From positions 14,937 through 78,936 of the IMG/VR virus record IMGVR_UViG_3300026488_000026: a DNA stretch of 64,000 bases; one strand, given 5' to 3'. Position numbers and translations under genes: made by a program. Of the stretch, positions 4,388 through 26,094 are shown in pieces. A model generated the notes under the pieces. It saw only the letters and a program-made list of their open reading frames with translations, ran no database searches and was not told the origin of the DNA. This stretch comes from a virus. Position 1 is the stretch's first letter; each line of letters opens with the position of its first letter.

Positions 4388-4449
4388 TTTTAATAAAAAC
4401 ATAAAAAATAAAGGAGAGAAAAATGAAACCTAATTTTAAGGGGAGGACA

Positions 4450-4487
4450 TTCAATTGAGCTTTATTTAAAAATAAAGCTCAATTGAA
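4450..4487. repeat. Perfect 18-bp inverted repeat
   Basis: TTCAATTGAGCTTTATTT-AA-AAATAAAGCTCAATTGAA; no U-tract on either side. Confidence 0.95.
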
Positions 4488-4561
4488 CACCCACATCAGG
4501 TGTTCTAAATTTAACACCCACTTCAGGTGTTATAAATTGAACACCCACATCAGGTGTTCTA
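4481..4561. repeat. Three tandem 27-bp palindromic units
   Basis: AATTGAACACCCACATCAGGTGTTCTA / AATTTAACACCCACTTCAGGTGTTATA / AATTGAACACCCACATCAGGTGTTCTA. Confidence 0.95.
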
Positions 4562-4565
4562 CTAT

Positions 4566-4573
4566 TATATCGG
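4566..4573 (-). promoter_or_regulatory. Late promoter motif CCGATATA heading the repeat element
   Basis: Same motif as at 7 late genes; 4 nt from the first repeat. Confidence 0.65.
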
Positions 4574-4576
4574 AAA

Positions 4577-5626
4577 TTATACAACCCGTGTTGAAATGTA
4601 AATTCCTTTATAAGTTTTTTTACTCAAAGTTGGGTCGGTAGTAAACAAAGGAAAATGTCTAATGCTTACTGTTTCTTTAAAAAACTCACTAAAATAAACT
4701 TTACCATCAGAAGTTTCTTGTCTAAATCTAAATTTTAATTGATTTACTCTCCCCCATTGTGGGTTAGAGCCAGAAAAGTCAAGAGTTATTTTATTGTTAG
4801 TAAATTTATTTAATGGATAATAAGTGCTTCTTCTTGATCTTGACATATTTCCTGTGTTACCACTATTGTTAAAATTAGTAACTTTATCATAACCCCACAT
4901 TTCAAGAATTAAGTTTTCAGGAAAAGTTTGATTAAAGACAAAACCACCAATTGAAATGGTATTGAAAAATTTTTTATTTAATTGCATTGTTTCATTTCCA
5001 TCAAATTGTTTATAAGTTACAGTCCAATCAGTAGGGTCGTCATTATTCATAACAGCATCTTCTAAATACATATATTGTTTTGTATTATCCCACATAGTAA
5101 TCGGTATCATTGCATTTCTTGCTTTTACTCTTGTAGTACCCTCATACCTATCCAATCTTATATTATACATTCCTCCAAATTTAATTGGCTCTTTATAAAC
5201 AATTTTAATTGTTCCAGCTGGATTACCATTAGGAAAACTTAAATGTTGTGTATAACCAGCTGGATTTATATATTGTTTTCCAAATTCCCAATCATCAAAC
5301 AAAGTATCATTAATATATACTTTTACTAAATTTTTATTTGGAAAAATTAATTGTCTTAACCACAATAGTTTTTGAGGCGAAATGTTATCCGTATGAGAAT
5401 ACATAATTATTTGATTTTCTCTAACATTACTACCTCCAAAAGGAACTAAATAGCCTTTTGAAATTGCATCATCTACATTGCTTGTAGCTACCGAATTATT
5501 TGCTACAACATAATAATCGTAACTACCAGAATCTACAATAACCAATTGATTTAATTCATAATTCTGTAATATAATCACATCTGTTGGCTTTAATACAGGT
5601 ATTTTATAATGAGTATAAACTTGCAT
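4577..5626 (-). CDS. Virion structural/fibre-associated protein
   Basis: Late operon; paralogous to C-half of 5637..7505; N-terminal motif shared with 14787..16349. Confidence 0.6.
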   Translation of the reverse strand: MQVYTHYKIPVLKPTDVIILQNYELNQLVIVDSGSYDYYVVANNSVATSNVDDAISKGYLVPFGGSNVRENQIIMYSHTDNISPQKLLWLRQLIFPNKNLVKVYINDTLFDDWEFGKQYINPAGYTQHLSFPNGNPAGTIKIVYKEPIKFGGMYNIRLDRYEGTTRVKARNAMIPITMWDNTKQYMYLEDAVMNNDDPTDWTVTYKQFDGNETMQLNKKFFNTISIGGFVFNQTFPENLILEMWGYDKVTNFNNSGNTGNMSRSRRSTYYPLNKFTNNKITLDFSGSNPQWGRVNQLKFRFRQETSDGKVYFSEFFKETVSIRHFPLFTTDPTLSKKTYKGIYISTRVV

Positions 5627-5636
5627 TTTTCCTCCT

Positions 5637-7505
5637 TTAAATAATTTTCATAAGTTTGTAATCACCTACAAACTTATTTTCACTATCAGATGCATCTATT
5701 GTAAATACAGGAAAAGTCCTGACACTAACTACACTTGAAAGCCAACGACTAAACAAAACATTACCACTTTCATCTGTTTTACCTAATCTAAAATGATAAA
5801 TACCATTTTTATCAAGATTAGAAATTTTATTAATAGTAAATTTACCAATAGGTATTAATCTTCCTTGTGCCTCCATGTTATTTGGGATATGTTTTGTATT
5901 TGGGGATTTACTATCGCTTTTCCATACTTCTATCCAAAAACCATCTGGTAATGTTTCTTCTTTCGGAAATTCTGCTATATAAGCAAAATTAGGACTTGCT
6001 TTTTCTACTATAATTTTAATATCTGGGTTATCAATTCTAATATATTTACAAGAATAGCGTTTATAACCTAATTCTTCCCCAAGTATGCTTACTTCTTTTA
6101 AATAAAATTTATTACCATGGCTATCTGTAATAAATTTAGTTATCATTTTTGGTCTTGAAGTTATTTGTAAAGAGCCTTCTTTTCTATATAATACAAGTTT
6201 ATAATCGCCCAAATTTATAGGCTCTAAATATTCAATTTTAATTTCATCATCGCTATTTAATGTAGTGTTGAATTTTAAATGAGTTGTATAATCAGGATTT
6301 AAACTTTGGACTTGATTGCCAAAATCCCAATCTTCATATTCTACTCCATTAACCCAAACTTTAAATAAATTTTTGTTTTTAAAAACATAGCGTTTTAAAA
6401 ACAACAAGTTTTTACCAGAAATATCTTTTCCTTTTCTATAAATAAAAACACGATTAGTTGTATCACTACTATCGTTAAAGCTAAACAATTCTCCCGTGTT
6501 AATATCAATACCTATTACATAAGCATTTTCTGGTTTTGGTTTTGGGGTCTTTGCATAAGAATAAAAAATAGGATTTTTCATTTTAAAATCAAAAGCATCT
6601 TTTGTTACTGAGAAATAAGGTTTAATTGATGCAAAATCATTTCCTAAAGCAATATCATATTGTGCTTGGTCTCCATAAGCTCCAACTACTAATTGCTTAT
6701 CACTAAGATTACCTCCTTTACCAGCCAAATAAGCTTGATAAAAACTTGTTGGATACATTGTTAAAAAAACTTGGTCTTTATAAGGGTCAGCAGAGGTAGA
6801 AGCCGTAAATCCAGCCCCAGCATAATTATCAGAATTATTTTCATTTGTTACATTTATTTCAACAATACCATAAACATTTCTTTTTATAGCAATGCGTTGG
6901 ACATCATCCGCCGTTTGATTGTTAGGTTGTAATTGTTTTCCAATTCCTGTATCTGATTCAGTTTTTTCCCAATAAGTTTTTTTATCAATAATATCACAGA
7001 TATCTTTTGGCGTGTATCTTCTAACTTCATCAACAGCACAAGGATTTTGTTTTTCAACTTCAGTTATTTTATGAATTTGAACGCCAAGATAAAACCATTT
7101 TGGATTACCATCCTCGTCTTTCCTTGCTTCATACAAACCAGCTTTCTTTCTATTAAATAAAGTCCAAGTTCCTGTTGCTTTTTGAACTAACCATTGCTCC
7201 CCTAAATGGTCGGCTGGGTCAGGTAAATCAGCAAAAGTTTCAACTTCGCCTTCCCAACCATCAAAACTTGAACTACCTCCTCCTAAACTAACTTCAACCC
7301 AACTTATCAAATCATCTTGTAATTGCCAAAATTTTCCATCTTCTTGACAATAAACTACCATTCCTGATTTTCTTCTTAAATCAGGAATGTTATCTCTCTC
7401 TTCAATAGTAGCTACAACACGAAAACCACCTTCTAAATGAGTATCTTCAACTAAAGGATATTCTCCTCCACCTGTATCAAATTTTCCTGTTATTTTAATC
7501 CCCAT
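5637..7505 (-). CDS. Head/tail fibre-like protein
   Basis: GGFRVVATIEERDNIP...RRKSGMVVY and VETFADLP fibre-type modules. Confidence 0.6.
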   Translation of the reverse strand: MGIKITGKFDTGGGEYPLVEDTHLEGGFRVVATIEERDNIPDLRRKSGMVVYCQEDGKFWQLQDDLISWVEVSLGGGSSSFDGWEGEVETFADLPDPADHLGEQWLVQKATGTWTLFNRKKAGLYEARKDEDGNPKWFYLGVQIHKITEVEKQNPCAVDEVRRYTPKDICDIIDKKTYWEKTESDTGIGKQLQPNNQTADDVQRIAIKRNVYGIVEINVTNENNSDNYAGAGFTASTSADPYKDQVFLTMYPTSFYQAYLAGKGGNLSDKQLVVGAYGDQAQYDIALGNDFASIKPYFSVTKDAFDFKMKNPIFYSYAKTPKPKPENAYVIGIDINTGELFSFNDSSDTTNRVFIYRKGKDISGKNLLFLKRYVFKNKNLFKVWVNGVEYEDWDFGNQVQSLNPDYTTHLKFNTTLNSDDEIKIEYLEPINLGDYKLVLYRKEGSLQITSRPKMITKFITDSHGNKFYLKEVSILGEELGYKRYSCKYIRIDNPDIKIIVEKASPNFAYIAEFPKEETLPDGFWIEVWKSDSKSPNTKHIPNNMEAQGRLIPIGKFTINKISNLDKNGIYHFRLGKTDESGNVLFSRWLSSVVSVRTFPVFTIDASDSENKFVGDYKLMKII

Positions 7506-7516
7506 TTAAAAACTCC

Positions 7517-8332
7517 TTAACTGATAGTGCTATCTAACGGACTACCTTGTTGATAAGTAGTTCGTAATGCTTTATATTCAATTGTAACACCATAATCATT
7601 TGTTATATTTATATTATCTAAATAAGTAAAATCCACGGCAAAACCCGATTCATTGTCACGCCAATCATTAATATTTCCCCATTCAGCTGGATAAAAAACA
7701 AAATAATATCTCAATTCACCATGATTATCAAAATTATATTTTCCTGAATACCCACTTTTTAAAGCACTATTCTCAAGTGCTTTAATTTCTTCCGCAGTTA
7801 AAGTTTCTTTTACCGAAGTTCCCCAATAAACTCTTGCTCTCCAATAAACACGAAAATCTCTACTAAATGTTTGTTCTTTTGTATTAACACCACTAATTCT
7901 CCAAGTATAATAACTATTAATTTCGCTTGAAGTTTTATCCTCCCCTATATCTAAATTTTCCTGACCATCATTTGCTAAATTACTACCTAAAATTGTATTA
8001 GCGTTTATATCTTTAATGCTAATAGAGTTTTCTTTTATATTTTCTGAATGACTTGTACTCCATTTAAAAGTTCTAATCCCACCGCTTATTGCTTGTCCTA
8101 CTTCTAATTGCGTTGATTGTCCTTCAATATAAAAACTTGTAAAAGAAGGATATTGATAAGGAAACAAAATCATTTTTAAAACTTCACAAGGTTGCATTCC
8201 ATTAATATCTGTACCAGCTTCTAATCCACCATGTTTTTCTGGTACAACTTCTTCAGTTTGCATAACACAACCACCAGACCCTCCACCAACTCCTATATCA
8301 GGGTAAATCACAGAAAATTTATTATTTGGCAT
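7517..8332 (-). CDS. Virion structural protein (Ig-like)
   Basis: ILFPYQYPSF motif, beta-rich; late promoter upstream. Confidence 0.55.
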   Translation of the reverse strand: MPNNKFSVIYPDIGVGGGSGGCVMQTEEVVPEKHGGLEAGTDINGMQPCEVLKMILFPYQYPSFTSFYIEGQSTQLEVGQAISGGIRTFKWSTSHSENIKENSISIKDINANTILGSNLANDGQENLDIGEDKTSSEINSYYTWRISGVNTKEQTFSRDFRVYWRARVYWGTSVKETLTAEEIKALENSALKSGYSGKYNFDNHGELRYYFVFYPAEWGNINDWRDNESGFAVDFTYLDNINITNDYGVTIEYKALRTTYQQGSPLDSTIS

Positions 8333-8361
8333 TTTCTTCCTTTATAGTTAGCATTTATACA

Positions 8362-8369
8362 TATATCAG
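8362..8369 (-). promoter_or_regulatory. Late promoter motif CTGATATA
   Basis: 30 nt upstream of ATG 8332. Confidence 0.7.
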
Positions 8370-8397
8370 TTATATTACTTTTAAAAACTAAAAAACC

Positions 8398-9756
8398 TTA
8401 TACAACTTGAATTTGTAAATTTTGTAATTTCCACCAACCACTTGTTAAATAACGCAAAGCACCAACAGCTAAGTCAAAATGCCCATCTTTGTTTCTTTCT
8501 ATTGTTTTTCCATTTGAATTTTCTTTCCAATGAGCCAACTTTAATTCTTCTATTAATTGCATACAATTTTCAGATATAAATAATTTTCCTTTTTGAAATG
8601 CTGTGTTAATGTCCCTAATGCTTTCTACTAATTGAATTGGTGCGGGTTGTGTATAGTAGTTATAGCTATATGCCATATCAGCCATTGTCAAACTTGCACT
8701 TGGGTCACAAAACCTTACAACTTGCATATCAGGATTTTCCGCATATCTTTGTTCTATTTCTCTGAATTGTTTAACATGCCATTCAATAGGCATTTGCCCA
8801 GCTTTATATTCGTCCAAAACATAAATATTGCCCGTCATAGGCTCTACCCAAGCTATAACAAAACTTGTATTATCTCTATAACCTATATCAATTCCTACTA
8901 CAAATGTATCTTTTGTTGTCATTTTGTTTTTCAAATCATTAATTCTAAATACATTTTTTTCTAAATCAAAAGCATAAAATACTTGTAAATCCTCGCTAAA
9001 CCCACTTTGAAACTCACATAAATATTCTTGTTCAAAACTTCTTTTATCAAGTTTAGCTTTAATTGCCTCAATCATTTCTCTTGTTATCATAGGATTATCA
9101 TAAATAGTTACCTTTTTACAAAAATAATCATCGCGTTCAGCACATCTTTTCCATAATTTATAAAAATCATTATCAAAAGTTCTTGGCGTTCCTATAAAAA
9201 AAGTTTTAGAATACATAAAACCATTTTCATCAGTTCCATAATCATTTTGTGCTGGAGAAATATAAGTTTCCCAAATTTCAAGAACATTATTAATACTCGC
9301 GGTTTCATCAAAAATAACCAAACTAAATTTATCTCCAAGTGCATTTTCATAATTTTTTTCAGTAACGACACGAAACTTTGCACCATTTTCTAATGTAAAT
9401 GTTAAACCTTTCATATCTTTTGATTTAAAAGGCAATTGTAATTTGTTTACATCTTTTTCAACATTACTAAAAATAGCTTGTGCATTTGCAAAAGTAGGCG
9501 TTACTAATAATATACTTGAATTTGGAACTAAAAGTTCAGCGGAGGCAATTTTTGACATAACTGTTGATTTACCAGCTCTTCTTGACATTAAAAAAACACC
9601 AACATTAAAATCCCCTTTTTGTATTCTATCAATTATTTCTTGTTGATATTTTGTAGGAGTAAATTCAAAAAGTTTCATTACCTTATTATAATCTATCTTC
9701 TTTTTAACTTTTTTATAAAGCTCTATTTCTTGATTTATAGGTTTAAATTCAGACAT
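8398..9756 (-). CDS. terL: Terminase large subunit (T5-like)
   Basis: SRRAGKS Walker A, VIFDE Walker B, GTP motif, FEQEYLCEF, GIDIG nuclease motif. Confidence 0.95.
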   Translation of the reverse strand: MSEFKPINQEIELYKKVKKKIDYNKVMKLFEFTPTKYQQEIIDRIQKGDFNVGVFLMSRRAGKSTVMSKIASAELLVPNSSILLVTPTFANAQAIFSNVEKDVNKLQLPFKSKDMKGLTFTLENGAKFRVVTEKNYENALGDKFSLVIFDETASINNVLEIWETYISPAQNDYGTDENGFMYSKTFFIGTPRTFDNDFYKLWKRCAERDDYFCKKVTIYDNPMITREMIEAIKAKLDKRSFEQEYLCEFQSGFSEDLQVFYAFDLEKNVFRINDLKNKMTTKDTFVVGIDIGYRDNTSFVIAWVEPMTGNIYVLDEYKAGQMPIEWHVKQFREIEQRYAENPDMQVVRFCDPSASLTMADMAYSYNYYTQPAPIQLVESIRDINTAFQKGKLFISENCMQLIEELKLAHWKENSNGKTIERNKDGHFDLAVGALRYLTSGWWKLQNLQIQVV

Positions 9757-9790
9757 TAAACAATCCTTTTAATAAATTGTAATTTTAAGT

Positions 9791-9798
9791 TATATCAG
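9791..9798 (-). promoter_or_regulatory. Late promoter motif CTGATATA (terL)
   Basis: 35 nt upstream of ATG. Confidence 0.7.
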
Positions 9799-9879
9799 AT
9801 TAAATTTAAGTATAAAAAGAATTGTAAGAAATTTGTTATGAGAGTTTAATGAGTTTTTTCAGATAGGATATAAAAAAAA

Positions 9880-9898
9880 TTCTTTAAGGCTTCGGACA
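9880..9898 (+). repeat. Dispersed 19-bp element, copy 1
   Basis: TTCTTTAAGGCTTCGGACA, identical at 16534-16552 (inverted) and 57425-57443. Confidence 0.9.
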
Positions 9899-9994
9899 GT
9901 TTTAAAATTCCCTAAAATTCGACATTTTAAACTTTTTTTATAAAAAATACTTTATAAAAATCGTCAAAACTCTTGTATAAAATTTTTTACGCTA

Positions 9995-10023
9995 TTGACA
10001 AAATGTAAAAATTTTTTTATAAT
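9995..10023 (+). promoter_or_regulatory. sigma70 promoter
   Basis: TTGACA-17-TATAAT. Confidence 0.85.
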
Positions 10024-10064
10024 TTAAAAAAATTTAAGAACTTATCATAAAAATTAAGGAGGAA

Positions 10065-10313
10065 ATGATGACTGAATTAAGATATATTTGTGATGGATAT
10101 GATTGTTGGCAAACAGGTGATTTAGATGAAATTTGGGAAATAGATAAAGAGGTTGCTGAAAAAGTAATTGAACTTGGTTTTTGCAACGAAAGTGCTAACG
10201 CAAAAGATTTACATTTATGTAAAGAATGTATTAATGAACTTTTAAAAGAATATCCTGATATTTTTGAAGTAGAAGATGAAATGCTATGTTTTAAGGAGGC
10301 AAAAAATGACTAA
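10065..10313 (+). CDS. Hypothetical acidic protein with Cys pairs
   Basis: AGGAGG RBS; CxxxxC and CxxC. Confidence 0.7.
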   Translation: MMTELRYICDGYDCWQTGDLDEIWEIDKEVAEKVIELGFCNESANAKDLHLCKECINELLKEYPDIFEVEDEMLCFKEAKND

Positions 10314-10509
10314 AAAATTTTTAGTTGATTTGATTGTTGTTGGATTAGCACTCATATTTTATGCACTTTTTATTTTAGGGCTAAGTCAAAAGGTTTATAA
10401 CGAGGTTTTTATTAAATATTTTAGCCCTATTATTATCTTTTTAGGTTTTTTGCAGTTAAGTGAATTTTTAGTAAGCATAATTAAATTAATTATAAGAATT
10501 TTAAAATAA
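10306..10509 (+). CDS. Small two-TM membrane protein
   Basis: AGGAGG RBS before ATG 10306; hydrophobic. Confidence 0.7.
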   Translation: MTKKFLVDLIVVGLALIFYALFILGLSQKVYNEVFIKYFSPIIIFLGFLQLSEFLVSIIKLIIRILK

Positions 10510-10526
10510 AAACAAAAAGAGATAAA

Positions 10527-10990
10527 ATGGAATATAGCGTAATAATAAACCTAACTCAACACAAAGCAACAGAAGAACGGAAACAAGCAGGTGTAATTGA
10601 TTTACCAGAAAAATATCAAACAAAACTAAAAACACTTTAAACTTTTGATGAATTACTTACTTGTGAGGAAATTATTAATAGAGCTGAAAAATAAGAGATT
10701 TAGTTTTAGAGTTTTTAACAGATGATTTAAGTCCTGTTAAAAATGAGGTCAAACAAATTTTAAAACTAAATGGAATTAAACAATTTGGGGAGTTTAGAAA
10801 ATTAAATTTAGGTTTTATGCTTGGTGGTGCATCTTATTTGATATGTGTTTTAGAAGAGGAAATAAGTTATTTTGGAACACCTTTATATGCTTTTACAAAA
10901 AGAATTGTAGAGGAAACAAAAAAAGCAGATGGAACAATAGAAAAGAAAGTAATTTTTAAACATGAAGGTTTTGTCCTCACTTGTGTTTAG
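10527..10990 (+). pseudogene. Disrupted Csx20-like (ring-nuclease-related) gene
   Basis: NLTQHKATEE... N-terminus, stop at 10638, frameshift near 10690, then GG..YL...PLYAFTKR.VEE...DG..EKK.IFKHEGF. Confidence 0.65.
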
Positions 10991-11505
10991 TCTTTTATAA
11001 CTTGTTGTAAGATATTTACAAAGACATTTCCTGTTGTTCCCAATTTTTTTCTTTCTTCTTCTTTCATAACATCATCAAGCATTTTAGCAATATCTAAAAT
11101 ATCTTTATCAGTAGCATTTGCAAAATTTCCGCCATGTTTTTCTATTTGTTCTATTTTATCTTCTAATGTTCTCATAATAACTGAAACTACAACATTTTTA
11201 GCATTTTCTTTTATTTCTTTCATAATCGCATTATAAAATTCTTTAACATAAGGTTTTGATAGAGTTCTACTAATGTATTGATAAGGCAAACCAAGTTCTT
11301 TTGCAATTCTTTTATTACTATAACCACGAACTTTCATTTCAACTACATATCTTTCGATTGTTGATAAAGGTTTATCAAAATTAACATTTGTAAATTCAAG
11401 TAAATCAGCTTTTATCTCGCCTTTAGCATTAGCATCAGGTAAATTTTTAAGTTCTTCTTGATTAACAACAGGAACTCCTACAATTTCTTTTGTTTCTTTA
11501 GACAT
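10987..11505 (-). CDS. terS: Terminase small subunit (probable)
   Basis: HTH (GYSNKRIAKELGL) plus helical C-terminus; T5-TerS-like size; near terL. Confidence 0.7.
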   Translation of the reverse strand: MSKETKEIVGVPVVNQEELKNLPDANAKGEIKADLLEFTNVNFDKPLSTIERYVVEMKVRGYSNKRIAKELGLPYQYISRTLSKPYVKEFYNAIMKEIKENAKNVVVSVIMRTLEDKIEQIEKHGGNFANATDKDILDIAKMLDDVMKEEERKKLGTTGNVFVNILQQVIKD

Positions 11506-11728
11506 TAACATTCCTTTTTTCTAATGAGTCAGCAAATTTTAATACTAAATCATTTATTTCATCTTCACTAATTTTAGTTTCTTTGTTTTTACAACATTCA
11601 CAACGACTTTTGTTATCTAATTCGTCTAAATCATTAACATAAAAAATATTAGAACAAGTGCAAACAATTTCATATTTACCAAAATTCTCTAAATATGTAT
11701 AATCAAGCATTGGATTAATTTTTTTCAT
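11498..11728 (-). CDS. Zn-finger hypothetical protein
   Basis: CxC...CxxC; AAGGA RBS. Confidence 0.6.
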   Translation of the reverse strand: MKKINPMLDYTYLENFGKYEIVCTCSNIFYVNDLDELDNKSRCECCKNKETKISEDEINDLVLKFADSLEKRNVNV

Positions 11729-11796
11729 TTTTAGTTCCTTTATTGTATAAAATTTAATCAATTTATTATAACAAATTTAATCAATTTAGTAAATTT

Positions 11797-12111
11797 TTAT
11801 ATTTTTGATTTTATTTTTTTTACAATTTCTACTTCAATTAGATATAATAAATTTGCTCCTTTATGTGCCATAATACCTCCAAAAGCACTTGCTCCATAAA
11901 TACTTACATTAAGCATATCATAAGCAAGAACAAATCCTATTAAACCTAAAAATCCTGCATAAAACAAATCTAATAAATATAGCATTATTTTAGTTTTAAT
12001 AGGTTTGTTTTTCAAATCTCTTTGTGTGAAATTTATTGAAGTAGCCCAAAGTATAAAAATCATTAAAATTATATAAGCTTTTAAAGTTACTTCGTCCCAT
12101 TTATTTTTCAT
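11797..12111 (-). CDS. Holin-like three-TM protein
   Basis: Three hydrophobic segments, GGIMAHKG, basic C-terminus; late promoter upstream. Confidence 0.6.
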   Translation of the reverse strand: MKNKWDEVTLKAYIILMIFILWATSINFTQRDLKNKPIKTKIMLYLLDLFYAGFLGLIGFVLAYDMLNVSIYGASAFGGIMAHKGANLLYLIEVEIVKKIKSKI

Positions 12112-18556: not shown

Positions 18557-18804
18557 AAATGCAAGTTACAAAATCAAATCTTTATAATTTGATAACAAAT
18601 GATGCTTTGTTATCAAAACTTTGGGAAGAAAATTTAGCTTGGTATGGTTATTATAAAGATAAAAACGAAACACATGGTATGAGTTATATAAAATATATGG
18701 CTTATATGGATTTACATCAAAAATGTGTTGAGCTTAAAAAAGCAAAATTAGATAAACATGAAGAAAAAATAATAAAAGAATTTGTTAATTTTTATTTTAG
18801 TTAA
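18553..18804 (+). CDS. Hypothetical protein
   Basis: Coupled ORF in operon. Confidence 0.7.
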   Translation: MKMQVTKSNLYNLITNDALLSKLWEENLAWYGYYKDKNETHGMSYIKYMAYMDLHQKCVELKKAKLDKHEEKIIKEFVNFYFS

Positions 18805-18814
18805 AGGAATAAGA

Positions 18815-19300
18815 ATGGAATTTATAAAAACAGATTGGTCGTTTAGTTTGGAAAATATAAAAGAAAAATTAAAAAAGCAAAAAATTCATCTTAGTAAAAA
18901 ACAATATGATGTTATAACTCCGATAGTTTTGCCTTCAAGAAATTATGAGGAAATTCGTAATGCCTATATGAAGTCAGTTCAAAAATTAGGAAGGTATTAT
19001 CATATTCCAGCTTTTAGTAATGTAAAAATAGTATATTTTAATAATATGAGTTGGTTTATTTATTCTAAGGCTTATTTAGAAGAATGGTTGGAATTTTTGT
19101 TATTACAAACAAAAATTAAATTGTCCGATAATATTTTTGAAATACATAAATTAGCACCAAAAGTTATAGAAAAAGAATTAAAGTTTTTTATAAAGCAAAA
19201 GGAAAAAGCACAATTTGATTTAGTTAAAGTTTTTTATGAAGATAAAGCCATTGGTTACAACGCAGTTAATGAATTTTTAAATTTTAAGGAGATTAAATGA
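18815..19300 (+). CDS. Hypothetical protein
   Basis: AAGGA RBS before ATG 18815. Confidence 0.7.
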   Translation: MEFIKTDWSFSLENIKEKLKKQKIHLSKKQYDVITPIVLPSRNYEEIRNAYMKSVQKLGRYYHIPAFSNVKIVYFNNMSWFIYSKAYLEEWLEFLLLQTKIKLSDNIFEIHKLAPKVIEKELKFFIKQKEKAQFDLVKVFYEDKAIGYNAVNEFLNFKEIK

Positions 19301-19542
19301 TTCTTAAAAGAAAAGTTAGTTTTGAAAGATTAAAGTTTATCTTAGAACATTTGAATAAAAATGTTGATGTTTTGGCAATAGTTGATAGTGAAAATCATAA
19401 AATTTTTGTAAAAATTGGCACAATTTGCTATGAAATTACACAAAAAACGCAAAAAATTTTAAATGAAAGCAAAAATTTTTATGAAATTTTGCGTTTTTTG
19501 AACGAAAAAGCAATAAAAATTGAAGATTTTAAGGAAATTTGA
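19297..19542 (+). CDS. Hypothetical protein
   Basis: AGGAG RBS; ATGA overlap. Confidence 0.7.
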   Translation: MILKRKVSFERLKFILEHLNKNVDVLAIVDSENHKIFVKIGTICYEITQKTQKILNESKNFYEILRFLNEKAIKIEDFKEI

Positions 19543-20090
19543 TGAAAAAATTGCAAAAAAATGAAAAAAATTTGTTAATTTTGCCGATTTTTGAGCTATT
19601 TCCTTCAAAAAATATTGAAAATTGGTTTGAAACTTTAATGTTTAAGCGTTTAGCTAATTTATTTTATGTTATAAAGCAAAAAGAGCTTGGAGTTTTAGCC
19701 CAGGAATTAGATGAGATTAGTAGAAATTTAGTGTTTGCAAGTTATTTAAAAACTTATAAAACTTTGGATTATTTTTATGTTTTAATAAAAAATGGTAAGT
19801 TTATTGGCGTGATTAGTTTTGATATTTCTTCTGAAAATTTATATTTTAAACAAGGTAAATATTTGATATTTGCTCAAACAGGTTTAGTTTCAAATGAAAT
19901 TTCGGATTTTTGGTTTATGATGCGTAATTTGCGTGATTTAACAAACAAAATTATAAAAAAAGAACAACCTGATTTTGCAATTGCTTATTTAAAAAATATA
20001 AGCCATAACAAACGATTTTTAAAACAAGTAGAAAAAGAACATAATTTAAAAATAAGTTTGGTATATAATTTAACTTACGGAGCTTTTTAA
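19539..20090 (+). CDS. Hypothetical protein, possibly GNAT-like fold
   Basis: FYVLIKNGKFIGVI beta pattern; weak. Confidence 0.5.
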   Translation: MMKKLQKNEKNLLILPIFELFPSKNIENWFETLMFKRLANLFYVIKQKELGVLAQELDEISRNLVFASYLKTYKTLDYFYVLIKNGKFIGVISFDISSENLYFKQGKYLIFAQTGLVSNEISDFWFMMRNLRDLTNKIIKKEQPDFAIAYLKNISHNKRFLKQVEKEHNLKISLVYNLTYGAF

Positions 20091-20368
20091 TGAAAACAAA
20101 CTTAATTTTATCTGATAAAGAACTTGGTAAAGAAAATAATCAAAAAATTGTGGATTTAATTAGAGAAATTTATCCTTATTTATCGCTTGATGCTGTGGCT
20201 AAGCTTACAGGTTTATCAAAAACAAAAGTTAAAGAAATTTTAAAAGCAAACAATATAAATAAAGAAAACGACCCAAGCTGGTATAATAATACGCCAATTG
20301 TGATTTGGTTGCCAAGTGAATTTTATGATAAGGTTGATATTGAAAATTTAAAATTTGTAAAAAAATAG
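20090..20368 (+). CDS. HTH DNA-binding protein
   Basis: SLDAVAKLTGLSKTKVKEIL. Confidence 0.7.
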   Translation: MKTNLILSDKELGKENNQKIVDLIREIYPYLSLDAVAKLTGLSKTKVKEILKANNINKENDPSWYNNTPIVIWLPSEFYDKVDIENLKFVKK

Positions 20369-20369
20369 C

Positions 20370-20399
20370 TTGACATATGCAATAATAAAATGCTATAAT
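20370..20399 (+). promoter_or_regulatory. sigma70 promoter
   Basis: TTGACA-18-TATAAT with TG extension. Confidence 0.8.
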
Positions 20400-20431
20400 T
20401 TTTTTGAAGTAAATTTAAAAAGGAGAATCAA

Positions 20432-20881
20432 ATGAATGAAATTAATTTGTCAGCTTATTTAAAACAAATGCTTGAGCCACAAGTTGTAATTGAAATTTGT
20501 AATTATGAATTTGGCAAAGATTTTAAAGAAAAATTTGAAAAAGAAGAGCTTTTAAGTTATCTTATTAATAGGTTATTAAAAAATAATGATTTGGCATCAA
20601 ATATGTATGATTTTGTTGAAGTTGTTGGTTTTATCGTCCAACAAGAATTTAAGAATTATGGGCGAGTTTATATAGATGTTGATGAACTTGATAATGTTTT
20701 TTATGTTTTAGTTGGTAGAATGTTAGAAAATGGTATTCCTAAAAACTTAATTAAACAATTTTTAGTTGATTGTTTTAAATCATTTTATGGTTTGCTTGAT
20801 AAAAAAATTTCTGATTTAATTTGGGAATATCAAAATAAAAAAGAAAAATTACCAAATCAGCTTTCAGGATTTGACAAATGA
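20432..20881 (+). CDS. Hypothetical protein
   Basis: AGGAG RBS. Confidence 0.7.
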   Translation: MNEINLSAYLKQMLEPQVVIEICNYEFGKDFKEKFEKEELLSYLINRLLKNNDLASNMYDFVEVVGFIVQQEFKNYGRVYIDVDELDNVFYVLVGRMLENGIPKNLIKQFLVDCFKSFYGLLDKKISDLIWEYQNKKEKLPNQLSGFDK

Positions 20882-21183
20882 TTGAACGCAAATTAAGTTG
20901 TTATCAGGTCCAAAAGGTTATGGACCTTTTTTATTTAAAAAAAGCAACTATTTCAAAAATAGCCCAATATTTTAAAGTTGGTTATAAGACAATTCAATAT
21001 ATAGTCCAAGGCAAAACTTATCGTGATTGTTGGCGTTATGATAGATATGGTTGGGAAAATGAAAATGATTTCAAACTTGCTTATGAACATAGGAAAAGAG
21101 AGAACATTAAAAATTATGGAAATGGTAGAAAATCTCCAAAAATAGAATTCCTATTAGAACAAATAAAAAAAGGAAAAGTTTGA
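20878..21183 (+). CDS. HTH DNA-binding protein
   Basis: TISKIAQYFKVGYKTIQYIVQGKTY. Confidence 0.7.
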   Translation: MIERKLSCYQVQKVMDLFYLKKATISKIAQYFKVGYKTIQYIVQGKTYRDCWRYDRYGWENENDFKLAYEHRKRENIKNYGNGRKSPKIEFLLEQIKKGKV

Positions 21184-21419
21184 AAACAATTTGGCTTGTT
21201 AAATGCCTAAAATGTAATGATGAAGTTGAAAATGGAAAGTGCAAATGTGGAAATGTTGGCGTTAGAAAAAAAGGAAAACAAATTTTAGTTTTATTTTGTG
21301 ACGATTTAAAAACTTGCAACTTAAAAAAAGTTGTAAGATACAAAAACTTAATAATAAAAGAAAAAAGTTGGTTTCCTTTTAGTTTTGCTAAAATTGAAAA
21401 AGTTGAGATGGAGGTATAA
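21180..21419 (+). CDS. Zn-ribbon protein
   Basis: CLKC...CKCG. Confidence 0.65.
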   Translation: MKTIWLVKCLKCNDEVENGKCKCGNVGVRKKGKQILVLFCDDLKTCNLKKVVRYKNLIIKEKSWFPFSFAKIEKVEMEV

Positions 21420-21494
21420 ATGGGTTTTTATTTTAGTTTTATTTTGGTTGGTGTTGTTTGTTTGCTTTTATTTTCAATTATAAAAGGACTTTAA
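21420..21494 (+). CDS. 24-aa membrane peptide
   Basis: GGAGG RBS; MGFYFSFILVGVVCLLLFSIIKGL. Confidence 0.6.
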   Translation: MGFYFSFILVGVVCLLLFSIIKGL

Positions 21495-21581
21495 ATGTTT
21501 GAAGAGATAATTTTTTTAGTTAGTTATTTTGTGTTTTTGATTATTGTAACGATTGAACTTTTAAGTAAGAAAGGAGAATAA
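21495..21581 (+). CDS. 28-aa membrane peptide
   Basis: AAGGA RBS; MFEEIIFLVSYFVFLIIVTIELLSKKGE; abuts both neighbours. Confidence 0.6.
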   Translation: MFEEIIFLVSYFVFLIIVTIELLSKKGE

Positions 21582-21842
21582 ATGAAAATAACAATACAAA
21601 GTTTTTTTGGTGCGGTAGCTTTTATTAGTTTTGTAATTGCAAGTTTTTATTTTAGTGCAATTTTAGGTTTTATTACATTTCTTTTTGGAGGATTTTTTAT
21701 AAATGGAATGGAAGTTTTTATGAAAGCAAATTGGGAATTGTTTAGTAATGAACTTGTTTTAGCAATTTCTTCATTAATTGTTGGTATAATTTCATTTCTT
21801 TTTGCTGTTTGGTTGGATAGTTTAGATAAAGATAAATTTTAA
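21582..21842 (+). CDS. Membrane protein
   Basis: Hydrophobic; AGGAG RBS. Confidence 0.7.
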   Translation: MKITIQSFFGAVAFISFVIASFYFSAILGFITFLFGGFFINGMEVFMKANWELFSNELVLAISSLIVGIISFLFAVWLDSLDKDKF

Positions 21843-21854
21843 AGGAGAATTAAA

Positions 21855-22097
21855 ATGCTTTGGCTCAAAATTAAAAATGTTGGTTATTTAAAAGTTAAGG
21901 ATATTAGCTATGTAGGCGAAGTTAGTTTGATTGATTTTGATGAATATACAAATAAAAATTTATATGGATTTGAAATTGTAATTGGAGGAGAACTTTTACC
22001 TTTAGTTTATGATAGTAAAGAAAAAGCAATTAAGGTTAATGAGGAAATTAAAAAACAACTTTTGATGAGTGCAAAAATTATAAAATTAGAAATTTAG
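21855..22097 (+). CDS. Hypothetical protein
   Basis: AGGAG RBS; resembles 33096..33347 and 49860..50093. Confidence 0.7.
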   Translation: MLWLKIKNVGYLKVKDISYVGEVSLIDFDEYTNKNLYGFEIVIGGELLPLVYDSKEKAIKVNEEIKKQLLMSAKIIKLEI

Positions 22098-22126
22098 TTT
22101 TCAATAGAAAATAAAAGGAGTATAAA

Positions 22127-22423
22127 ATGATGGTTGTAACAAGCTTAAATTTTTTTGAAAATTTAAAAAGCACTGAAATAAGCGAAGAGCAAGAAGAGCA
22201 ACTTATAAAATTTTATGAATTGTTGATTGATTATAAAAATGTAATAGATGAAGCAAGAGAAGATAAAAATATTTTGCTAATTCAAATAGAAAACAACAAA
22301 GAATTGTTAGTATATTACTATGGGCTTTATTTTTTATATTTGAATGAAGAAAAAATTTTTAGTTTTAATTCAAAAGATTTGACTATAATTGGAGATTTTT
22401 TAAAGGAGGCGTTAGATGATTAA
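22127..22423 (+). CDS. Hypothetical acidic protein
   Basis: AGGAG RBS. Confidence 0.7.
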   Translation: MMVVTSLNFFENLKSTEISEEQEEQLIKFYELLIDYKNVIDEAREDKNILLIQIENNKELLVYYYGLYFLYLNEEKIFSFNSKDLTIIGDFLKEALDD

Positions 22424-22775
22424 GTTTATTAAACGCTATGTGTGCCAAGGTAAAGTTCAAAATGATTATGAAAACAAAGTTGATTTTTTTCAAGTGATTG
22501 TTGAAAAAGAAGATGGAAGTCTTGAATGGAATGATGTTGTTGTTAAAGGTTTTTTGGTTTATTTAAAAGGCGGAAATTATGATAGATTTATCCGAGGTAT
22601 GTATAAAATAAAAGAAGAAAAATGGAAAGAGCTTGAAAGCAAATTGTTTGATAAAGTTGAAGTTATTGATTGTAATAAAGAAACTGAGCTTGAAGTTTTT
22701 GAGCTTGCATTATCAGGCGTTAGTTTGCCTGAAATTCAAAAATTTTTAGAAGAAAATGCGGAGAAAGTTAAATGA
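22416..22775 (+). CDS. Hypothetical protein
   Basis: AGGAGG RBS. Confidence 0.7.
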   Translation: MIKFIKRYVCQGKVQNDYENKVDFFQVIVEKEDGSLEWNDVVVKGFLVYLKGGNYDRFIRGMYKIKEEKWKELESKLFDKVEVIDCNKETELEVFELALSGVSLPEIQKFLEENAEKVK

Positions 22776-23077
22776 GAATTTTTCTCCTTTTATTGATAAT
22801 TTCAAGTTTGTTTGGCTATGATTTGTTGTGTTTAGTAGGTAAGAACGGCGATAAATGGTTGGAAGTTGAAAAACAATTAAGTTTGCATTGTGATAGCGAA
22901 AAATTAAAAATAAATGCGGTTAGATTTAGGCAAATTAGCGATTTGTTTGTTTATGAAATGCCAAATAAAGCGGTGTTGTTTTGCGAGAAAGATTGGGTGT
23001 GGAGCTTTAGAAAGCTGATTATAATCGGCAAAGAAAATTTTAAAAGCGGTGATTGCAAAAGTTTTTATAAAAAATAA
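22772..23077 (+). CDS. Exported protein
   Basis: Signal peptide MRIFLLLLIISSLFG; 4 Cys. Confidence 0.65.
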   Translation: MRIFLLLLIISSLFGYDLLCLVGKNGDKWLEVEKQLSLHCDSEKLKINAVRFRQISDLFVYEMPNKAVLFCEKDWVWSFRKLIIIGKENFKSGDCKSFYKK

Positions 23078-23099
23078 AGTTTGTAAAGGTTTTGGTAGA

Positions 23100-23535
23100 G
23101 GATTTGCTGTGGTTTTGGCGTGGATTTGTTAGTTATATGCCAAGCTATTTGTGAGTAATTGGTAGGTAAAAGAAAGTCCGCGGATTTTTTAGCGTTTTGC
23201 ACTCAAATAACCTCCCCCGTTTAATTCACAAGCCACATGTGAATATCTGCTTTTAGTGTCAAACGCTTTTTGTTTACTTAACATAATGCATATTCTCAGG
23301 ACATTTTAAAGCTAAAAAGTGTGAATAACTCAACGAATGGCAATTCAATTTTAAGTGAATGTTAAGGATTTTTTATAAAATAGTAAAATTATAGTGTCTG
23401 ACACTATAAAAAATTTTTAACATAAGGTAGTTTATAGAATAAGCATCGGTCGGCGTGGTTGCGGTCCTTTGCGGTCCTCTTTTATCGCCCTACAAGGAAA
23501 GGTCAAAAAATGCCGCGTTTTGTGGGTCACATTGT
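23100..23535. other. GC-enriched non-coding island with palindromes (possible genome end, packaging site or origin)
   Basis: Convergence point of the two gene blocks; palindrome 23389-23409; direct repeat TTGCGGTCCT x2 at 23459-23478. Confidence 0.5.
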
Positions 23536-23539
23536 AGAT

Positions 23540-23890
23540 TAAAATTTTTTCTTTTAAATCTAAAACAAATTAACTAAAATTTTTTCTTTTAAATCTAAAA
23601 CAAATTAACTAAAATTTTTCTTTTAAATCTAAAGCAAATTAACTAAAAATTACCTTGCAAAATTAAAATTTTTTCTTTTAAATCTAAAACAAATTAACTA
23701 ATAAACTAAAAACAAACAAATTAATAAACAAATTAATTAACTAACAAACTACCTTGCAAGATTAAAATTTTTTCTTTTAAATCTAAAACAAATTAATAAA
23801 CAAATTAATTAACTAACAAACTACTTTGCAAGATTAAAAAATTTTCTTTTAAAATTAAAAGCTAACAAACTAAAACTATCTTGCAATTTT
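23540..23890. repeat. AT-rich composite repeat block
   Basis: About 6 copies of TAAAATTTTTTCTTTTAAATCTAAAACAAATTAAC (35 bp) and 4 of TAYYTTGCAA. Confidence 0.9.
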
Positions 23891-23928
23891 TTAAATTATC
23901 AAAAGTCTTTGACACTTTTTATTAAAAT

Positions 23929-23961
23929 AACGCCAAGGGGACTAATTTTCCCTTTGGCGTT
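23929..23961 (-). terminator. Intrinsic terminator of the putative pre-early operon
   Basis: AACGCCAAAGGGA...UCCCCUUGGCGUU stem followed by AUUUU. Confidence 0.7.
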
Positions 23962-24284
23962 TGAAAATCTTATTCCATAGTTTTTCTTCTGTCTTAACCA
24001 CTTCTATATTTCCTGCTTTTATTTCTTGCTCTATTGCTTGTTTGTTTCCATCTTTGAAAAAGCAAAAATCTTCCAAAAAAAATTTTTAAATATTTTGAAG
24101 TTGTAACCGAAAAATTATAAGCATTTTTCAAGAGATAGATTTTTCTTTCTTTTATAATTACTCCGTCTTTTTCTTTTTTAATATATGTTTTTCCTGCAAT
24201 AAGAGTATTATAACTTTGAAAAATAACTCCTGATTCATTTCCTATTAAAAACTGATTTTTTTGTATTTGTTTTACTTTTAGCAT
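23942..24284 (-). CDS. Conserved phage early protein (FQSY...S.TT.KY type), frameshifted at a T8 tract
   Basis: ORF track stops at 23994; removing one T gives KIFLEDF...KQAIEQEIKAGNI ending at TAG 23942. Confidence 0.6.
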
Positions 24285-24297
24285 TGTGTGTCTCCTT

Positions 24298-24714
24298 TTA
24301 GTTTACTCTATAAATATAATAAGTTTTACCATTTATAGTAATTTCTCTTTCGTCTCCATCATAACTCGCAATTACACTTCCTGCACCATCATATTTTAAT
24401 ACATCTTCAACCCAAGCATCAACATCCACATAATATCGCAAATTTTCTGGTATATCTGATTCATAGCATTCTTCATAAATAGTATATAATTCATTTTTTG
24501 CATACTCTTCTACATCATCATAATCATTAAAAACTAAAAATTCACAGCATCCACAATCTACAAATAAATAGTTGTTCTCTTTTCTGAATTCACAATCTTT
24601 CAAATCTTTTGGAAGCACTTGAAGTGCTTCCGCCAAAATTTTCAAATCATACTTATCTTGAATATTAAAATATTCTAACACTTCTTTAAAAGTTAATTCA
24701 TTATCATATAACAT
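24298..24714 (-). CDS. Acidic ArdA-like antirestriction/DNA-mimic candidate
   Basis: IPENLRYYVDVDAW resembles ArdA C-terminal motif; D/E-rich. Confidence 0.55.
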   Translation of the reverse strand: MLYDNELTFKEVLEYFNIQDKYDLKILAEALQVLPKDLKDCEFRKENNYLFVDCGCCEFLVFNDYDDVEEYAKNELYTIYEECYESDIPENLRYYVDVDAWVEDVLKYDGAGSVIASYDGDEREITINGKTYYIYRVN

Positions 24715-24726
24715 TTTACACCTCCT

Positions 24727-25632
24727 TTAATTTTCTAAATCTTCAATTATATAATCTAAAAAAGTATCTTCATCAAAATCTAATAAAATTTCGATAAAAT
24801 CATTAAGTTTATCATAATCTACTATTAAATGATAAATAAATTCGTCTTTCGCCCATTCATATAAATTTTTAAATAATTCTTTTTTGTTTTGTTTTTTATT
24901 GCAATCTTCACAATCTTTATAATAATTTTCATAAATTTCAATTAATTCTTCTTTTTTAATTTTTTTAAGAAGTTTATCAATTAATTCATCTTCGCTATAA
25001 TCAATTAAACTTGAAATAATCCAACTTAAAGTTTTATAATCTAAATTATTATAATATTTAACATCTTTTAAATACTCTTTTATGTCATCTACTAATACAT
25101 AATAATTTGTGCCATCATGATGCCTGATTATCACTTCAATTTTTTTGTATTTTTTGCAATCAAAAACTTCCACTTCAATATCACCATCCGTTGCTTTATT
25201 TAGGAAATTTTCAAAAGTGCCTATATATTGTATTTCATAATCAAAATTGCCTCGCCATGTCCCTACGCTTTCATCTACCAACCATAGGTTGCCATTATCA
25301 ATTTTTTCATTTAATTCATCTATAAAAAATTTCCAATCTTCTCTCGTCAAATCTCCTGCTTTTCTCCAATCCCAATATTCATAATCTTCTATAATTTCAT
25401 TTTTTTGTTTTTTTAAATTTTTTATTTCTTCTTTAAAATCTTTTATTGTTCTTTTAATTTTATTATATGTTACACTTCCTGTTATAACATCTTTTAACAT
25501 CTCTTCATTTTCTTTTATTTCATATTCAAGTGCTTCAATTCTTTCATTAAGTTCTTGCTCAACCAAATATTTAGCATTTTCTTCTACTACTATATCCCAA
25601 TTAAATTCCATTATTTTTCTACATTCTTTCAT
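24727..25632 (-). CDS. Acidic hypothetical protein, first gene of putative pre-early operon
   Basis: AGGAGG RBS; GTWRG and HHDGTNYY motifs. Confidence 0.75.
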   Translation of the reverse strand: MKECRKIMEFNWDIVVEENAKYLVEQELNERIEALEYEIKENEEMLKDVITGSVTYNKIKRTIKDFKEEIKNLKKQKNEIIEDYEYWDWRKAGDLTREDWKFFIDELNEKIDNGNLWLVDESVGTWRGNFDYEIQYIGTFENFLNKATDGDIEVEVFDCKKYKKIEVIIRHHDGTNYYVLVDDIKEYLKDVKYYNNLDYKTLSWIISSLIDYSEDELIDKLLKKIKKEELIEIYENYYKDCEDCNKKQNKKELFKNLYEWAKDEFIYHLIVDYDKLNDFIEILLDFDEDTFLDYIIEDLEN

Positions 25633-25661
25633 TTGTGCCTCCTTTTATTTTTGTTAATGAC

Positions 25662-25690
25662 ATTATAAAAAATTTTTTATAAAATGTCAA
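25662..25690 (-). promoter_or_regulatory. sigma70 promoter with palindromic spacer
   Basis: TTGACA-17-TATAAT; TTATAAAAAATTTTTTATAA palindrome. Confidence 0.9.
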
Positions 25691-25959
25691 GAATTTTTTA
25701 TAAAAAATATAAAAAATTTTTTATATTTTTATTTTTGTATATACATTAATATATAAGAAAAATTTTTCCGCTCTTTCATTTTTTAGTTTTTTATTTATAA
25801 AAAATAAATGCCAAACACCAAATTTTTCATTCGTTTTACTTTATAAAAAATTTGAAAATTTTTCAAAATTTTTGTATATTTTACTATTACCGCTTTTTTA
25901 ATAAATTTTGAAAATTTAATTTTATTACTATTACCGATTTTTTAGTAGATTTTAAAAGT

Positions 25960-26062
25960 TTTAAATAGGAGGCACAAAAGGCAAAAAGCTCGAAATTTCG
26001 GAGGCACAAATGAAATGCTATAAATAAGGAGACACAATTTCTTTTTTGGCTTTTTGCCTTTT
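25960..26062 (-). ncRNA. Candidate multi-target anti-RBS sRNA
   Basis: sigma70 promoter with no ORF; 14-bp stem 25976-25989/26049-26062; three anti-SD modules matching RBSs at 25632, 24284 and 24714. Confidence 0.65.
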
Positions 26063-26064
26063 AA

Positions 26065-26094
26065 ATTATAAAAAATTTTATAATTACTTGTCAA
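26065..26094 (-). promoter_or_regulatory. sigma70 promoter of the candidate sRNA
   Basis: TTGACA-18-TATAAT. Confidence 0.8.

Follow-up and report, generated by a model that had tools for sequence, protein, structure and literature searches.

Possible antisense-type RNAs complementary to translation-initiation leaders at two intergenic elements of a 25% GC virus

Why should a virus keep inverted copies of the ribosome-binding leaders of its own genes in gaps that hold no open reading frame (ORF), behind promoters that would transcribe them as antisense RNA? The question is raised by two intergenic elements in a 64,000-nt stretch (the window, bases 14937-78936) of the IMG/VR virus record IMGVR_UViG_3300026488_000026, a 78.9-kb, 25% GC genome assembled as a circle. 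Element 1 is the gap at 4348-4576, ahead of the portal protein gene, while element 2 (proposed unit 25968-26094, minus strand, within an examined region of 25633-26195) lies ahead of a three-gene operon. A first-pass annotation of the sequence had read them as two tiers of a cascade, in which each wave of expression makes an RNA that silences the previous one. The explanation favoured here, with a probability of about 0.4, is that two separate antisense-type RNA devices act by base pairing with translation-initiation leaders, and that they form no temporal cascade; element 1 would plausibly be a late RNA directed against early leaders, and element 2 a c4-like, self-limiting leader RNA. The window's own genome (G000) has been compared throughout with two syntenic relatives recovered whole from IMG/VR, G001 (84 kb) and G002 (81 kb), at a nucleotide identity of 75-88%.

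The leaders in question share the sequence AAGGAGAGAAAAATG, which occurs in five exact minus-strand copies, each ending in the ATG of a gene (29776, 34162, 34430, 40427 and 57281), in two further copies with one mismatch and in one exact plus-strand copy at 4411-4425, against a chance expectation of 0.01 matches. The annotation had described five such early genes, mostly operon leaders, and this description holds: the gene starts tagged at 29762-29776, 34416-34430 and 57267-57281 are leaders behind sigma-70 promoters at 29824, 34477 and 57330, that at 34148-34162 belongs to the second gene of its operon, and the fifth copy lies at 40413-40427. The tagged first genes encode small proteins without family assignment, and the tag is found on only about half of the early (sigma-70-driven) operon leaders. 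When the contexts are aligned, the tag proves to close, on the 3' side, a cassette of about 70 nt that is repeated in the genome. This cassette, made up of a consensus sigma-70 promoter (TTGAC(T/A)-17-TATAAT) and an A-rich leader of about 26 nt, is complete at three of the five barcoded sites and has a near-copy at 38723 with a slightly weaker -35 box. The uniformity of the tag is largely a by-product of the duplicated promoter-leader cassette. G001 shares the tag of G000, with five minus-strand copies and one inverted copy, and G002 carries a related but heterogeneous set of tags. A bidirectional module of about 260 bp is also present in G002 (L025-L027) in three to four copies (~23303/23493, 35524/35715 and 43307/43498; also 41225/41271 and 45162): its minus strand bears a late motif with a 30-nt conserved upstream block, its plus strand a full sigma-70 promoter and leader. 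In two of the copies nothing but a 13-codon ORF lies behind the plus-strand promoter, which points antisense into late genes, among them the portal gene at its 3' end.

The inverted copy in the window lies in element 1 and, as had been claimed, in an ORF-less element behind a late promoter motif (4566-4573, minus strand). It belongs to a longer mirror, the anti-leader at 4401-4428, from which a minus-strand RNA would be the exact complement of the early-operon 5' untranslated region (5'UTR), Shine-Dalgarno site and AUG; its plus strand reads as a leader followed by a 10-codon minigene. This plus-strand copy matches the leaders of the genes at 34150, 29764, 34418 and 57269 perfectly over 27, 26, 25 and 24 nt, and that of the gene at 40415 over 18 nt, so that nearly the entire 5'UTR is spanned through the AUG. 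Between G000 and G001 a stretch of 19 nt (TTCATTTTTCTCTCCTTT) is identical, flanked on one side by an unalignable spacer and on the other by sequence of about 60% identity. Moreover, the mirror follows the leader style of each genome (ATAAAGGAGAG in G000, ACAAAGGAGAG in G001 and AACAAAAGGAGAA in G002), and cognate matches between mirror and leaders exceed non-cognate ones (27/26/25/24 nt in G000, 22/18/18 nt in G001 and 17/17/16/16 nt in G002). Covariation of leader and mirror in relatives, which had been proposed as a check, is present to the extent that the cognate matches are longer in all three genomes, but this co-change amounts to one or two independent changes, and gene conversion would give the same pattern.

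Predicted duplexes of the anti-leader with the tagged leaders reach -33 to -34 kcal/mol, compared with a median of -12.8 kcal/mol over all gene starts; late gene starts stay at background, and the anti-leader is unpaired in the fold of element 1 alone. A genome-wide 13-mer scan for inverted copies of gene starts is noisy in this A-rich genome, and element 1 stands out in it with six matched genes in G000 and four in G001. Sequestration in cis of the portal ribosome site was considered as the main role of the anti-leader and rejected, since the portal gene start ranks low among its predicted targets (76 of 107 in G000, 47 of 112 in G001 and 33 of 108 in G002). In G001, a separate sequence between the anti-leader and the portal late motif (TTGTTTTCCTTT, at 40440-40500 of that genome; L001 5940-6003) is a perfect 12-nt complement of that genome's own portal leader AAAGGAAAACAA, and the predicted stem spans the second late promoter; it is possibly a G001-specific control in cis of portal translation on long transcripts.

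The same matches could have arisen by recombination, the inverted leader copies being relics of dispersed promoter-leader cassettes kept uniform by gene conversion; one possible source is an early gene that was once transcribed divergently from the portal gene, with its start facing it. The hairpin-rich RNA of element 1 could then be real and serve another role, for example in stabilising the 5' end of the late portal mRNA or in its processing. Such an origin is consistent with the membership of the barcode in a multi-copy cassette of about 70 nt, with the perfection of the 24-27-nt matches, with the G002 modules, in which the plus strand next to late genes has acquired entire early leaders followed by 13-codon ORFs, and with the position of the portal gene as the first late gene, facing a divergent region, in many distant relatives. 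However, an unselected copy should diverge like its flanks, which are unalignable between G000 and G001, yet the 19-nt core is identical; inverted repeats are themselves a recombination hazard; and the mirror stands exactly within a late-promoter-driven, ORF-less and structured unit. The matches of the mirror fit a trans-acting anti-leader and a copy held uniform by gene conversion equally well, and relics of this kind are a serious rival explanation of the elements, only somewhat less probable than antisense devices.

The YYGATATA motif proposed as the late promoter ahead of the mirror turns out to be genuine. C[CT]GATATA is found 34-52 nt upstream of the ATG in 10 minus-strand late or structural genes and in their orthologues in G001 and G002, with 14 copies on the minus strand and one on the plus strand. 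A CGATATA-like box also lies about 35 nt upstream of the portal ATG in most of 17 portal relatives (49-58% identity) obtained by a profile scan of IMG/VR. No -35 element is conserved at the late motifs, and flank-based scoring is uninformative, the information being confined to the 8-nt core. The -10 boxes of sigma-28/SigD promoters read GCCGATAA/GCCGATAT. The window encodes a phage sigma factor of 200 aa (47587-48189, minus strand; Pfam Sigma70_r2, 1e-7), which passes the cut-off of the NCBIfam sigma70-ECF superfamily and has FliA and FliA/WhiG as its best subfamily matches, below their cut-offs. This factor probably reads the late motif, and the fit of a FliA-like sigma to the CCGATAT-like late -10 box makes a phage sigma-dependent late class credible.

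Element 1 itself is a 229-nt gap between a 349-aa gene and its downstream neighbour, the portal protein gene (2992-4347, minus strand; Pfam Phage_portal, 7e-39; PHROG 12). Its first late motif, CCGATATA (4573 to 4566), begins three bases after the upstream stop codon, is kept as TTTCCGATATAA in G001 and G002, and has a putative RNA start about 7-9 nt downstream, at the foot of hairpin 1. The minus strand then runs through three 27-nt hairpin units, a hairpin of 15-16 bp, a variable spacer of 22-30 nt, the early-leader complement, a T-rich stretch, a second late motif (CTGATATA, 4387 to 4380, 40 nt upstream of the portal ATG and likewise kept in both relatives) and the portal ribosome site, and the parts stand in identical order in G001 and G002. 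The three tandem units (4485-4559, with hairpins at about 4539-4559, 4512-4532 and 4485-4505) each form an 8-bp stem with a 5-nt loop; in the nine units of the three genomes the stem cells are 100% paired, two pairs change on both sides (GC/UA/AU and AU/GC), and none of 500 shuffles reaches the observed score. These units were found nowhere else in each genome, nor elsewhere in IMG/VR. The long hairpin (CAATTGAGCTTTATTT / AAATAAAGCTCAATTG, 4452-4485) is perfect and shows compensatory changes in the relatives, its stem position 8 being G-C, A-U and G.U and its position 9 C-G, G-C and G-C across the three genomes; the two G.U pairs of G002 pair on the minus-strand RNA only. Element 1 has no match to any Rfam family. 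Since its first late motif is the only one to sit in an intergenic gap with no gene behind it, element 1 is likely to make a late, structured, non-coding transcript.

Coding alternatives have been weighed against this assignment. The minus-strand frame is open across the 27-nt repeats in G000 and G001, with conservative substitutions, but a coding role was rejected: no ribosome site precedes the frame, its TTG or GTG start lies ahead of the point where the RNA is presumed to begin, its register against the preceding gene differs between G000 and G001, and in G002 a compensatory stem change introduces a stop codon that breaks it. It forms part of a wider proposal, already named by the first-pass annotation as a refuting outcome, that plus-strand minigenes are what is expressed, with 10 codons at element 1 in the window and in G002, 7 in G001, and 5 at element 2, or that the repeats encode a 9-residue peptide repeat. 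Although each of the three genomes retains an ATG with a properly spaced Shine-Dalgarno site, and element 2 would give the similar peptides MKCYK (G000) and MKFYK (G001), the element 1 peptides are unrelated (MKPNFKGRTFN, MNRLIEL and MKKKKERKLN) and no plus-strand promoter lies upstream of 4411, which together with the defects of the repeat frame leaves expressed minigenes scarcely credible.

Element 2 differs in layout. Two consensus sigma-70 promoters, each a 12/12 match, point the same way: a distal one, TTGACA-18-TATAAT, at 26094 to 26065, kept in G001, and a second one at 25690 to 25662, directly ahead of the target operon. The distal promoter was correctly placed by the earlier annotation ahead of an inverted ribosome-site style, and its RNA would begin at the base of a perfect stem of 14 bp (26049-26062 with 25976-25989) that frames the RNA core (25968-26062, minus strand); together with the 15-16-bp stem of element 1, this bears out the claim of perfect long stems in both elements. 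Three anti-Shine-Dalgarno modules, inverted forms of GGAG(G/A)CACAA, follow the promoter: UUGUGUCUCC (26028-26037) and CAUUUGUGCCUCC (26000-26015) inside the stem, and UUUUGUGCCUCC (25968-25979) directly after it. All three are unpaired in the predicted fold, and the 10-mer GGAGGCACAA occurs four times where about 0.01 would be expected from a composition-based estimate, which is not a tool result. G001 keeps the promoter, the three modules and the stem, the last through matched changes in which both arms are shortened together, from A5/T5 to A4/T4.

The operon downstream (23994-25632, minus strand) encodes a 301-aa unknown protein with a single homologue, in G001, a 138-aa weakly ArdA-like protein (E = 3e-4, below the Pfam cut-off) and a 96-aa unknown protein. 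Its ribosome sites, GGAGGCACAAATG, GGAGGTGTAAAATG and GGAGACACACAATG, share a style, GGAGGYACA...AUG, that is private to this operon, and the leader cognate to the element 2 RNA is GGAGGCACAAAUG. The GGAGRY style that had been ascribed to a set of pre-early genes is thereby retained for the three genes directly downstream of element 2, but not beyond them. Module matches reach 16 nt without a mismatch for the gene at 25632, including the ribosome site, AUG and next codon, 11 nt for the gene at 24284, and, for the gene at 24714 with its weak resemblance to ArdA, 12 nt including three G.U pairs. The operon gene starts of G000 rank 1, 15 and 13 among 107 predicted targets. The corresponding operon of G001 has six genes, and the five with ribosome sites of the GGAGG(U/C)A(C/U)A type take ranks 1-5 of 112. 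In G002 the stretch is replaced, and it holds neither the modules nor the GGAGGYACA style, while the neighbouring direct repeats are kept.

These repeats are two in number, within 25880-25945 between both sigma-70 promoters, 46 nt apart and with a minus-strand consensus of roughly GCTGAAAAANCGGTAATAGTA; they are followed by a very AT-rich stretch and a conserved block, TATATATAATGTATATACAA, and the whole is kept in G000, G001 and G002. In appearance they resemble the iterons or operators found in origins or control regions. If the inverted copies were recombination relics, element 2 would accordingly form part of an origin or operator region, as the conserved repeats and AT-rich DNA adjoining it in all three genomes, the module-less G002 included, would allow; three tandem modules held in a conserved stem, all matching the adjacent operon, are nevertheless unlike a single relic.

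The iteron-like repeats next to element 2 also lend something to a different proposal, that phage DNA-binding proteins bind the leader repeats with their inverted copy, the palindromes of the hairpin units and the GGAGGCACAA repeats, which could serve as operators of the early promoters, an activator site upstream of the portal late promoter, or packaging or origin sites. The mirror does stand just upstream of the portal late motif, and the hairpin units are palindromic with an exact 27-bp period. Against this, the mirror core stands 31 nt from the late motif in G000 and G001 but 19 nt from it in G002, a poor fit to a fixed activator site, and no other late promoter has such a site; furthermore, the occurrence of both stem variants within one genome, with halves that always change together, and the G.U-type pairs favour base pairing. 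A function as protein-binding DNA is considered unlikely.

With both elements described, the layered programme of the first-pass annotation can be judged. It supposes three temporal classes with their own ribosome-site barcodes, later RNAs that silence the preceding class, and translational coupling that spreads the block down each operon. Both anti-leader elements are indeed present, element 1 stands behind a late-type promoter and mirrors early leaders, and the genes of the early operons overlap or abut, so coupling is possible. However, the promoters of element 2 and of its targets are of one type, the 12/12 sigma-70 type also seen in the 'early' cassettes, and there is therefore no evidence for a pre-early class or for an element 2 RNA made in a later wave than the messages it would target. 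Element 2 is in addition co-directional with its targets and directly upstream of them, and its layout is for this reason c4-like or that of a cis-leader. Since, moreover, only about half of the early operon leaders are tagged and most downstream genes have Shine-Dalgarno sites of their own, the layered programme is most improbable. What survives of the original proposal is that the elements may give antisense RNAs of leaders, being ORF-less, conserved and structured, with promoters on the strand that would give the antisense; the temporal layering does not.

The sequences show the promoter motifs, covarying structures, complementarity and conservation described above, whereas transcription of both elements, pairing of their RNAs with leaders in vivo and repression of these leaders are inferred. 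According to the two-device explanation, a FliA-like phage sigma would fire late from the first late motif into the ORF-less element 1. The three small hairpins and the long hairpin at the start of the RNA would act as a 5' stabiliser, a processing site or both, and the RNA would continue as a single-stranded pyrimidine tract, the exact complement of the early 5'UTR of about 26 nt, the Shine-Dalgarno site and the AUG. Pairing would block ribosome loading and leave a long duplex open to RNase III, so that early operons would be shut off once late transcription starts, as an RNA counterpart of T4 RegB. At element 2, the RNA made from the distal sigma-70 promoter would carry the 14-bp closing stem, expose its three anti-Shine-Dalgarno modules and limit translation of the downstream operon in the manner of phage P1 c4 RNA, whether in cis (on long transcripts), in trans (on those from the proximal promoter) or both. 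The specific form in which a late RNA driven by a FliA-like sigma mirrors the early-operon leaders and switches the whole class off, while a c4-like RNA with three modules throttles the neighbouring operon, is put forward only tentatively.

Several observations weigh against the proposal of two antisense devices. No terminator-like site was found within 4250-4700 or within 25550-26250; because none precedes the portal gene, the element 1 RNA would probably be a long-leader isoform of the portal mRNA or be cut from it. Target prediction over gene starts, suggested earlier as a check, does place the early leaders best for element 1 and the G001 operon first for element 2, but it does not discriminate the strands: a control with both strands swapped gives similar duplex energies. 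In G000, two of the three operon genes that element 2 would target reach no better than ranks 13 and 15. The mirror of G002 is degenerate and pairs about equally with several kinds of gene start, and perfect identity over 24-27 nt is more typical of recent copying than of the seeds of small RNAs (sRNAs). Both the identity island and the way in which the mirror tracks leader styles by lineage could result from gene conversion, and promoter modules are visibly shuffled in these phages, as the duplicated bidirectional modules of G002 illustrate. A search of public sequencing runs for the phage DNA gave no RNA run, its only strong holder being a DNA run labelled hydrothermal vent metagenome, which is probably the source sample of the phage. 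Finally, both elements are confined to the three close genomes, so that very few events stand behind the covariation. Searched with two specific DNA patterns for element 1, IMG/VR gave only G001 and G002; a 15-mer search for element 2 gave 55 matches and was too unspecific, G001 alone being relevant. A metagenome scan yielded one truncated contig and a 2.2-kb contig with a portal gene 64% identical, which has the late-type motif but not element 1, and a scan of prokaryote genomes for carriers gave nothing. Four distant genomes of the portal family have neither any shared gene-start 14-mer nor element 1, a joint absence of tag and element that counts in favour of the proposal.

The closest known counterpart of the early tag is the 13-nt start-associated sequence (SAS/ESAS) that precedes many non-structural genes of Cluster K mycobacteriophages (Pope et al. 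2011, PMC3203893; PMC12699233). It contains a Shine-Dalgarno core, lies a few bases (3-8 nt) upstream of the start codon in one orientation, and in four Cluster K genomes, those of Anaya, Adephagia, Angelica and CrimD, a single copy in the opposite orientation is found away from gene starts (PMC3203893); whether it is bound by RNA or protein was left open by its authors, and its function was still unknown in 2025 (PMC12699233). The tag of the window resembles it as an extended sequence with a Shine-Dalgarno core at early gene starts, five exact and two near copies on the minus strand only, and in the single inverted copy at 4401-4428 (plus strand) in an ORF-less gap, with the same in G001. It is an analogue rather than a member, because the consensus differs: 5'-GGGATAGGAGCCC, with at most two deviations, for SAS and AAAGGAGAGAAAAATG here, in another phage group. 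Only 5-7 genes are tagged here, the tag is largely the end of a duplicated promoter-leader cassette, and the inverted copy stands in a late-promoter unit with a structured RNA, which has not been described for SAS.

The counterpart of element 2 is c4 of phages P1/P7 (immI; Rfam C4), a small structured RNA that lies upstream of its targets, co-directional with them, and whose short segments complement the ribosome-binding region of downstream genes and block translation (summarised in PMC12197685). Element 2 shares the upstream, co-directional position and the several segments complementary to ribosome sites, but it has three modules instead of two and no Rfam C4 match, either at the gathering threshold in the window or at E <= 5 in 25600-26200. 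Its downstream genes are not recognisable antirepressors, the proteins having no Pfam or PHROG matches to ant, ORF6N or KilAC, and the parts of the phage genome that were inspected give no hint of lysogeny.

With regard to the proposed logic of element 1, T4 RegB cuts GGAG with an A-rich 3' context in early ribosome sites and helps the switch to later classes (PMC3014915). Like RegB (and RegA), element 1 would supply a phage factor that recognises early Shine-Dalgarno regions and inactivates messages, but RegB is a protein nuclease made early, whereas a late base-pairing RNA is proposed here. In low-GC bacteria, sRNAs of the RsaE/RoxS type expose pyrimidine-rich segments that base-pair with several mRNAs at their G-rich ribosome sites. 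Flagellar hierarchies offer a further parallel, in that sRNAs dependent on RpoN or FliA act back on other gene classes (PMC11187230, PMC10578931), and the late sigma factor of this phage is also FliA-like. Both groups are bacterial, with short imperfect seeds and terminators, in contrast to the perfect complementarity over 16-27 nt, the phage origin and the absence of a recognisable terminator here. Late-promoter-driven cis-antisense RNAs are known from phage AR9. A full-text search of the literature found no description of a late phage RNA that mirrors a shared early leader; antisense occlusion of ribosome sites is already known, and a class-wide off-switch in a lytic-type phage programme would be new.

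As regards the genomic setting, the structural module occupies the minus strand below about 16.3 kb, with the large terminase (8398-9756), three unknown genes, the portal and a prohead protease-capsid fusion, while the minus strand above about 24 kb carries replication and modification genes, including a ligase and a C5-methylase, in tight operons. The three genes between terminase and portal (349, 622 and 271 aa; 4577-8332) have no Pfam or NCBIfam family, and since the terminase directly precedes the portal gene in most distant relatives, this block and element 1 look like an insertion. Upstream of the portal gene in the distant relatives L102, L103, L104 and L106 there are repeated blocks of the GGTCTTGGGACAC type, and L104 has at about 3700-3900 a perfect inverted repeat of about 60 bp that includes the ribosome-site-like GGAGTAAACA and its complement; these blocks may be packaging or control sites. 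Within the terminase gene, a sigma-70-like promoter (TTGACA-18-TAAAAT, 9582-9611, plus strand), antisense toward the gene's start, is kept in G001 and G002, for which coding constraint may suffice as the cause. The three records each end in a direct terminal repeat of the same length, 127 bp, for which the simplest explanation is k-mer overlap from the assembly of a circle rather than a repeat at physical ends. The part at 4000-12000 has no nucleotide match among sequenced phages, and the portal protein gives matches below 27% identity only; further portal relatives exist at 50-73% identity. Searches of the window for tRNAs and Rfam families gave nothing at the gathering threshold; relaxing it to E <= 5 added only generic hairpin similarities to miRNA models, all of which fall far short of the threshold.

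The switch-on of early genes in lytic phages is well understood and their switch-off much less so, the textbook cases, RegA and RegB of T4, being proteins. If the proposed function of element 1 is true, one late RNA able to recognise the leader that a gene class has in common would amount to a simple, portable and evolvable way of turning the whole class off, and it would offer a function for the start-associated sequences of mycobacteriophages and for their puzzling single inverted copy. Taken with the orphan inverted SAS copies of Cluster K, it would point to a widespread, undescribed class-wide translational shut-off in phages. Should the inverted copies be relics instead, the locus would still document a structured RNA that covaries and is driven by a late promoter, as well as late transcription of a FliA-like kind in a vent phage.

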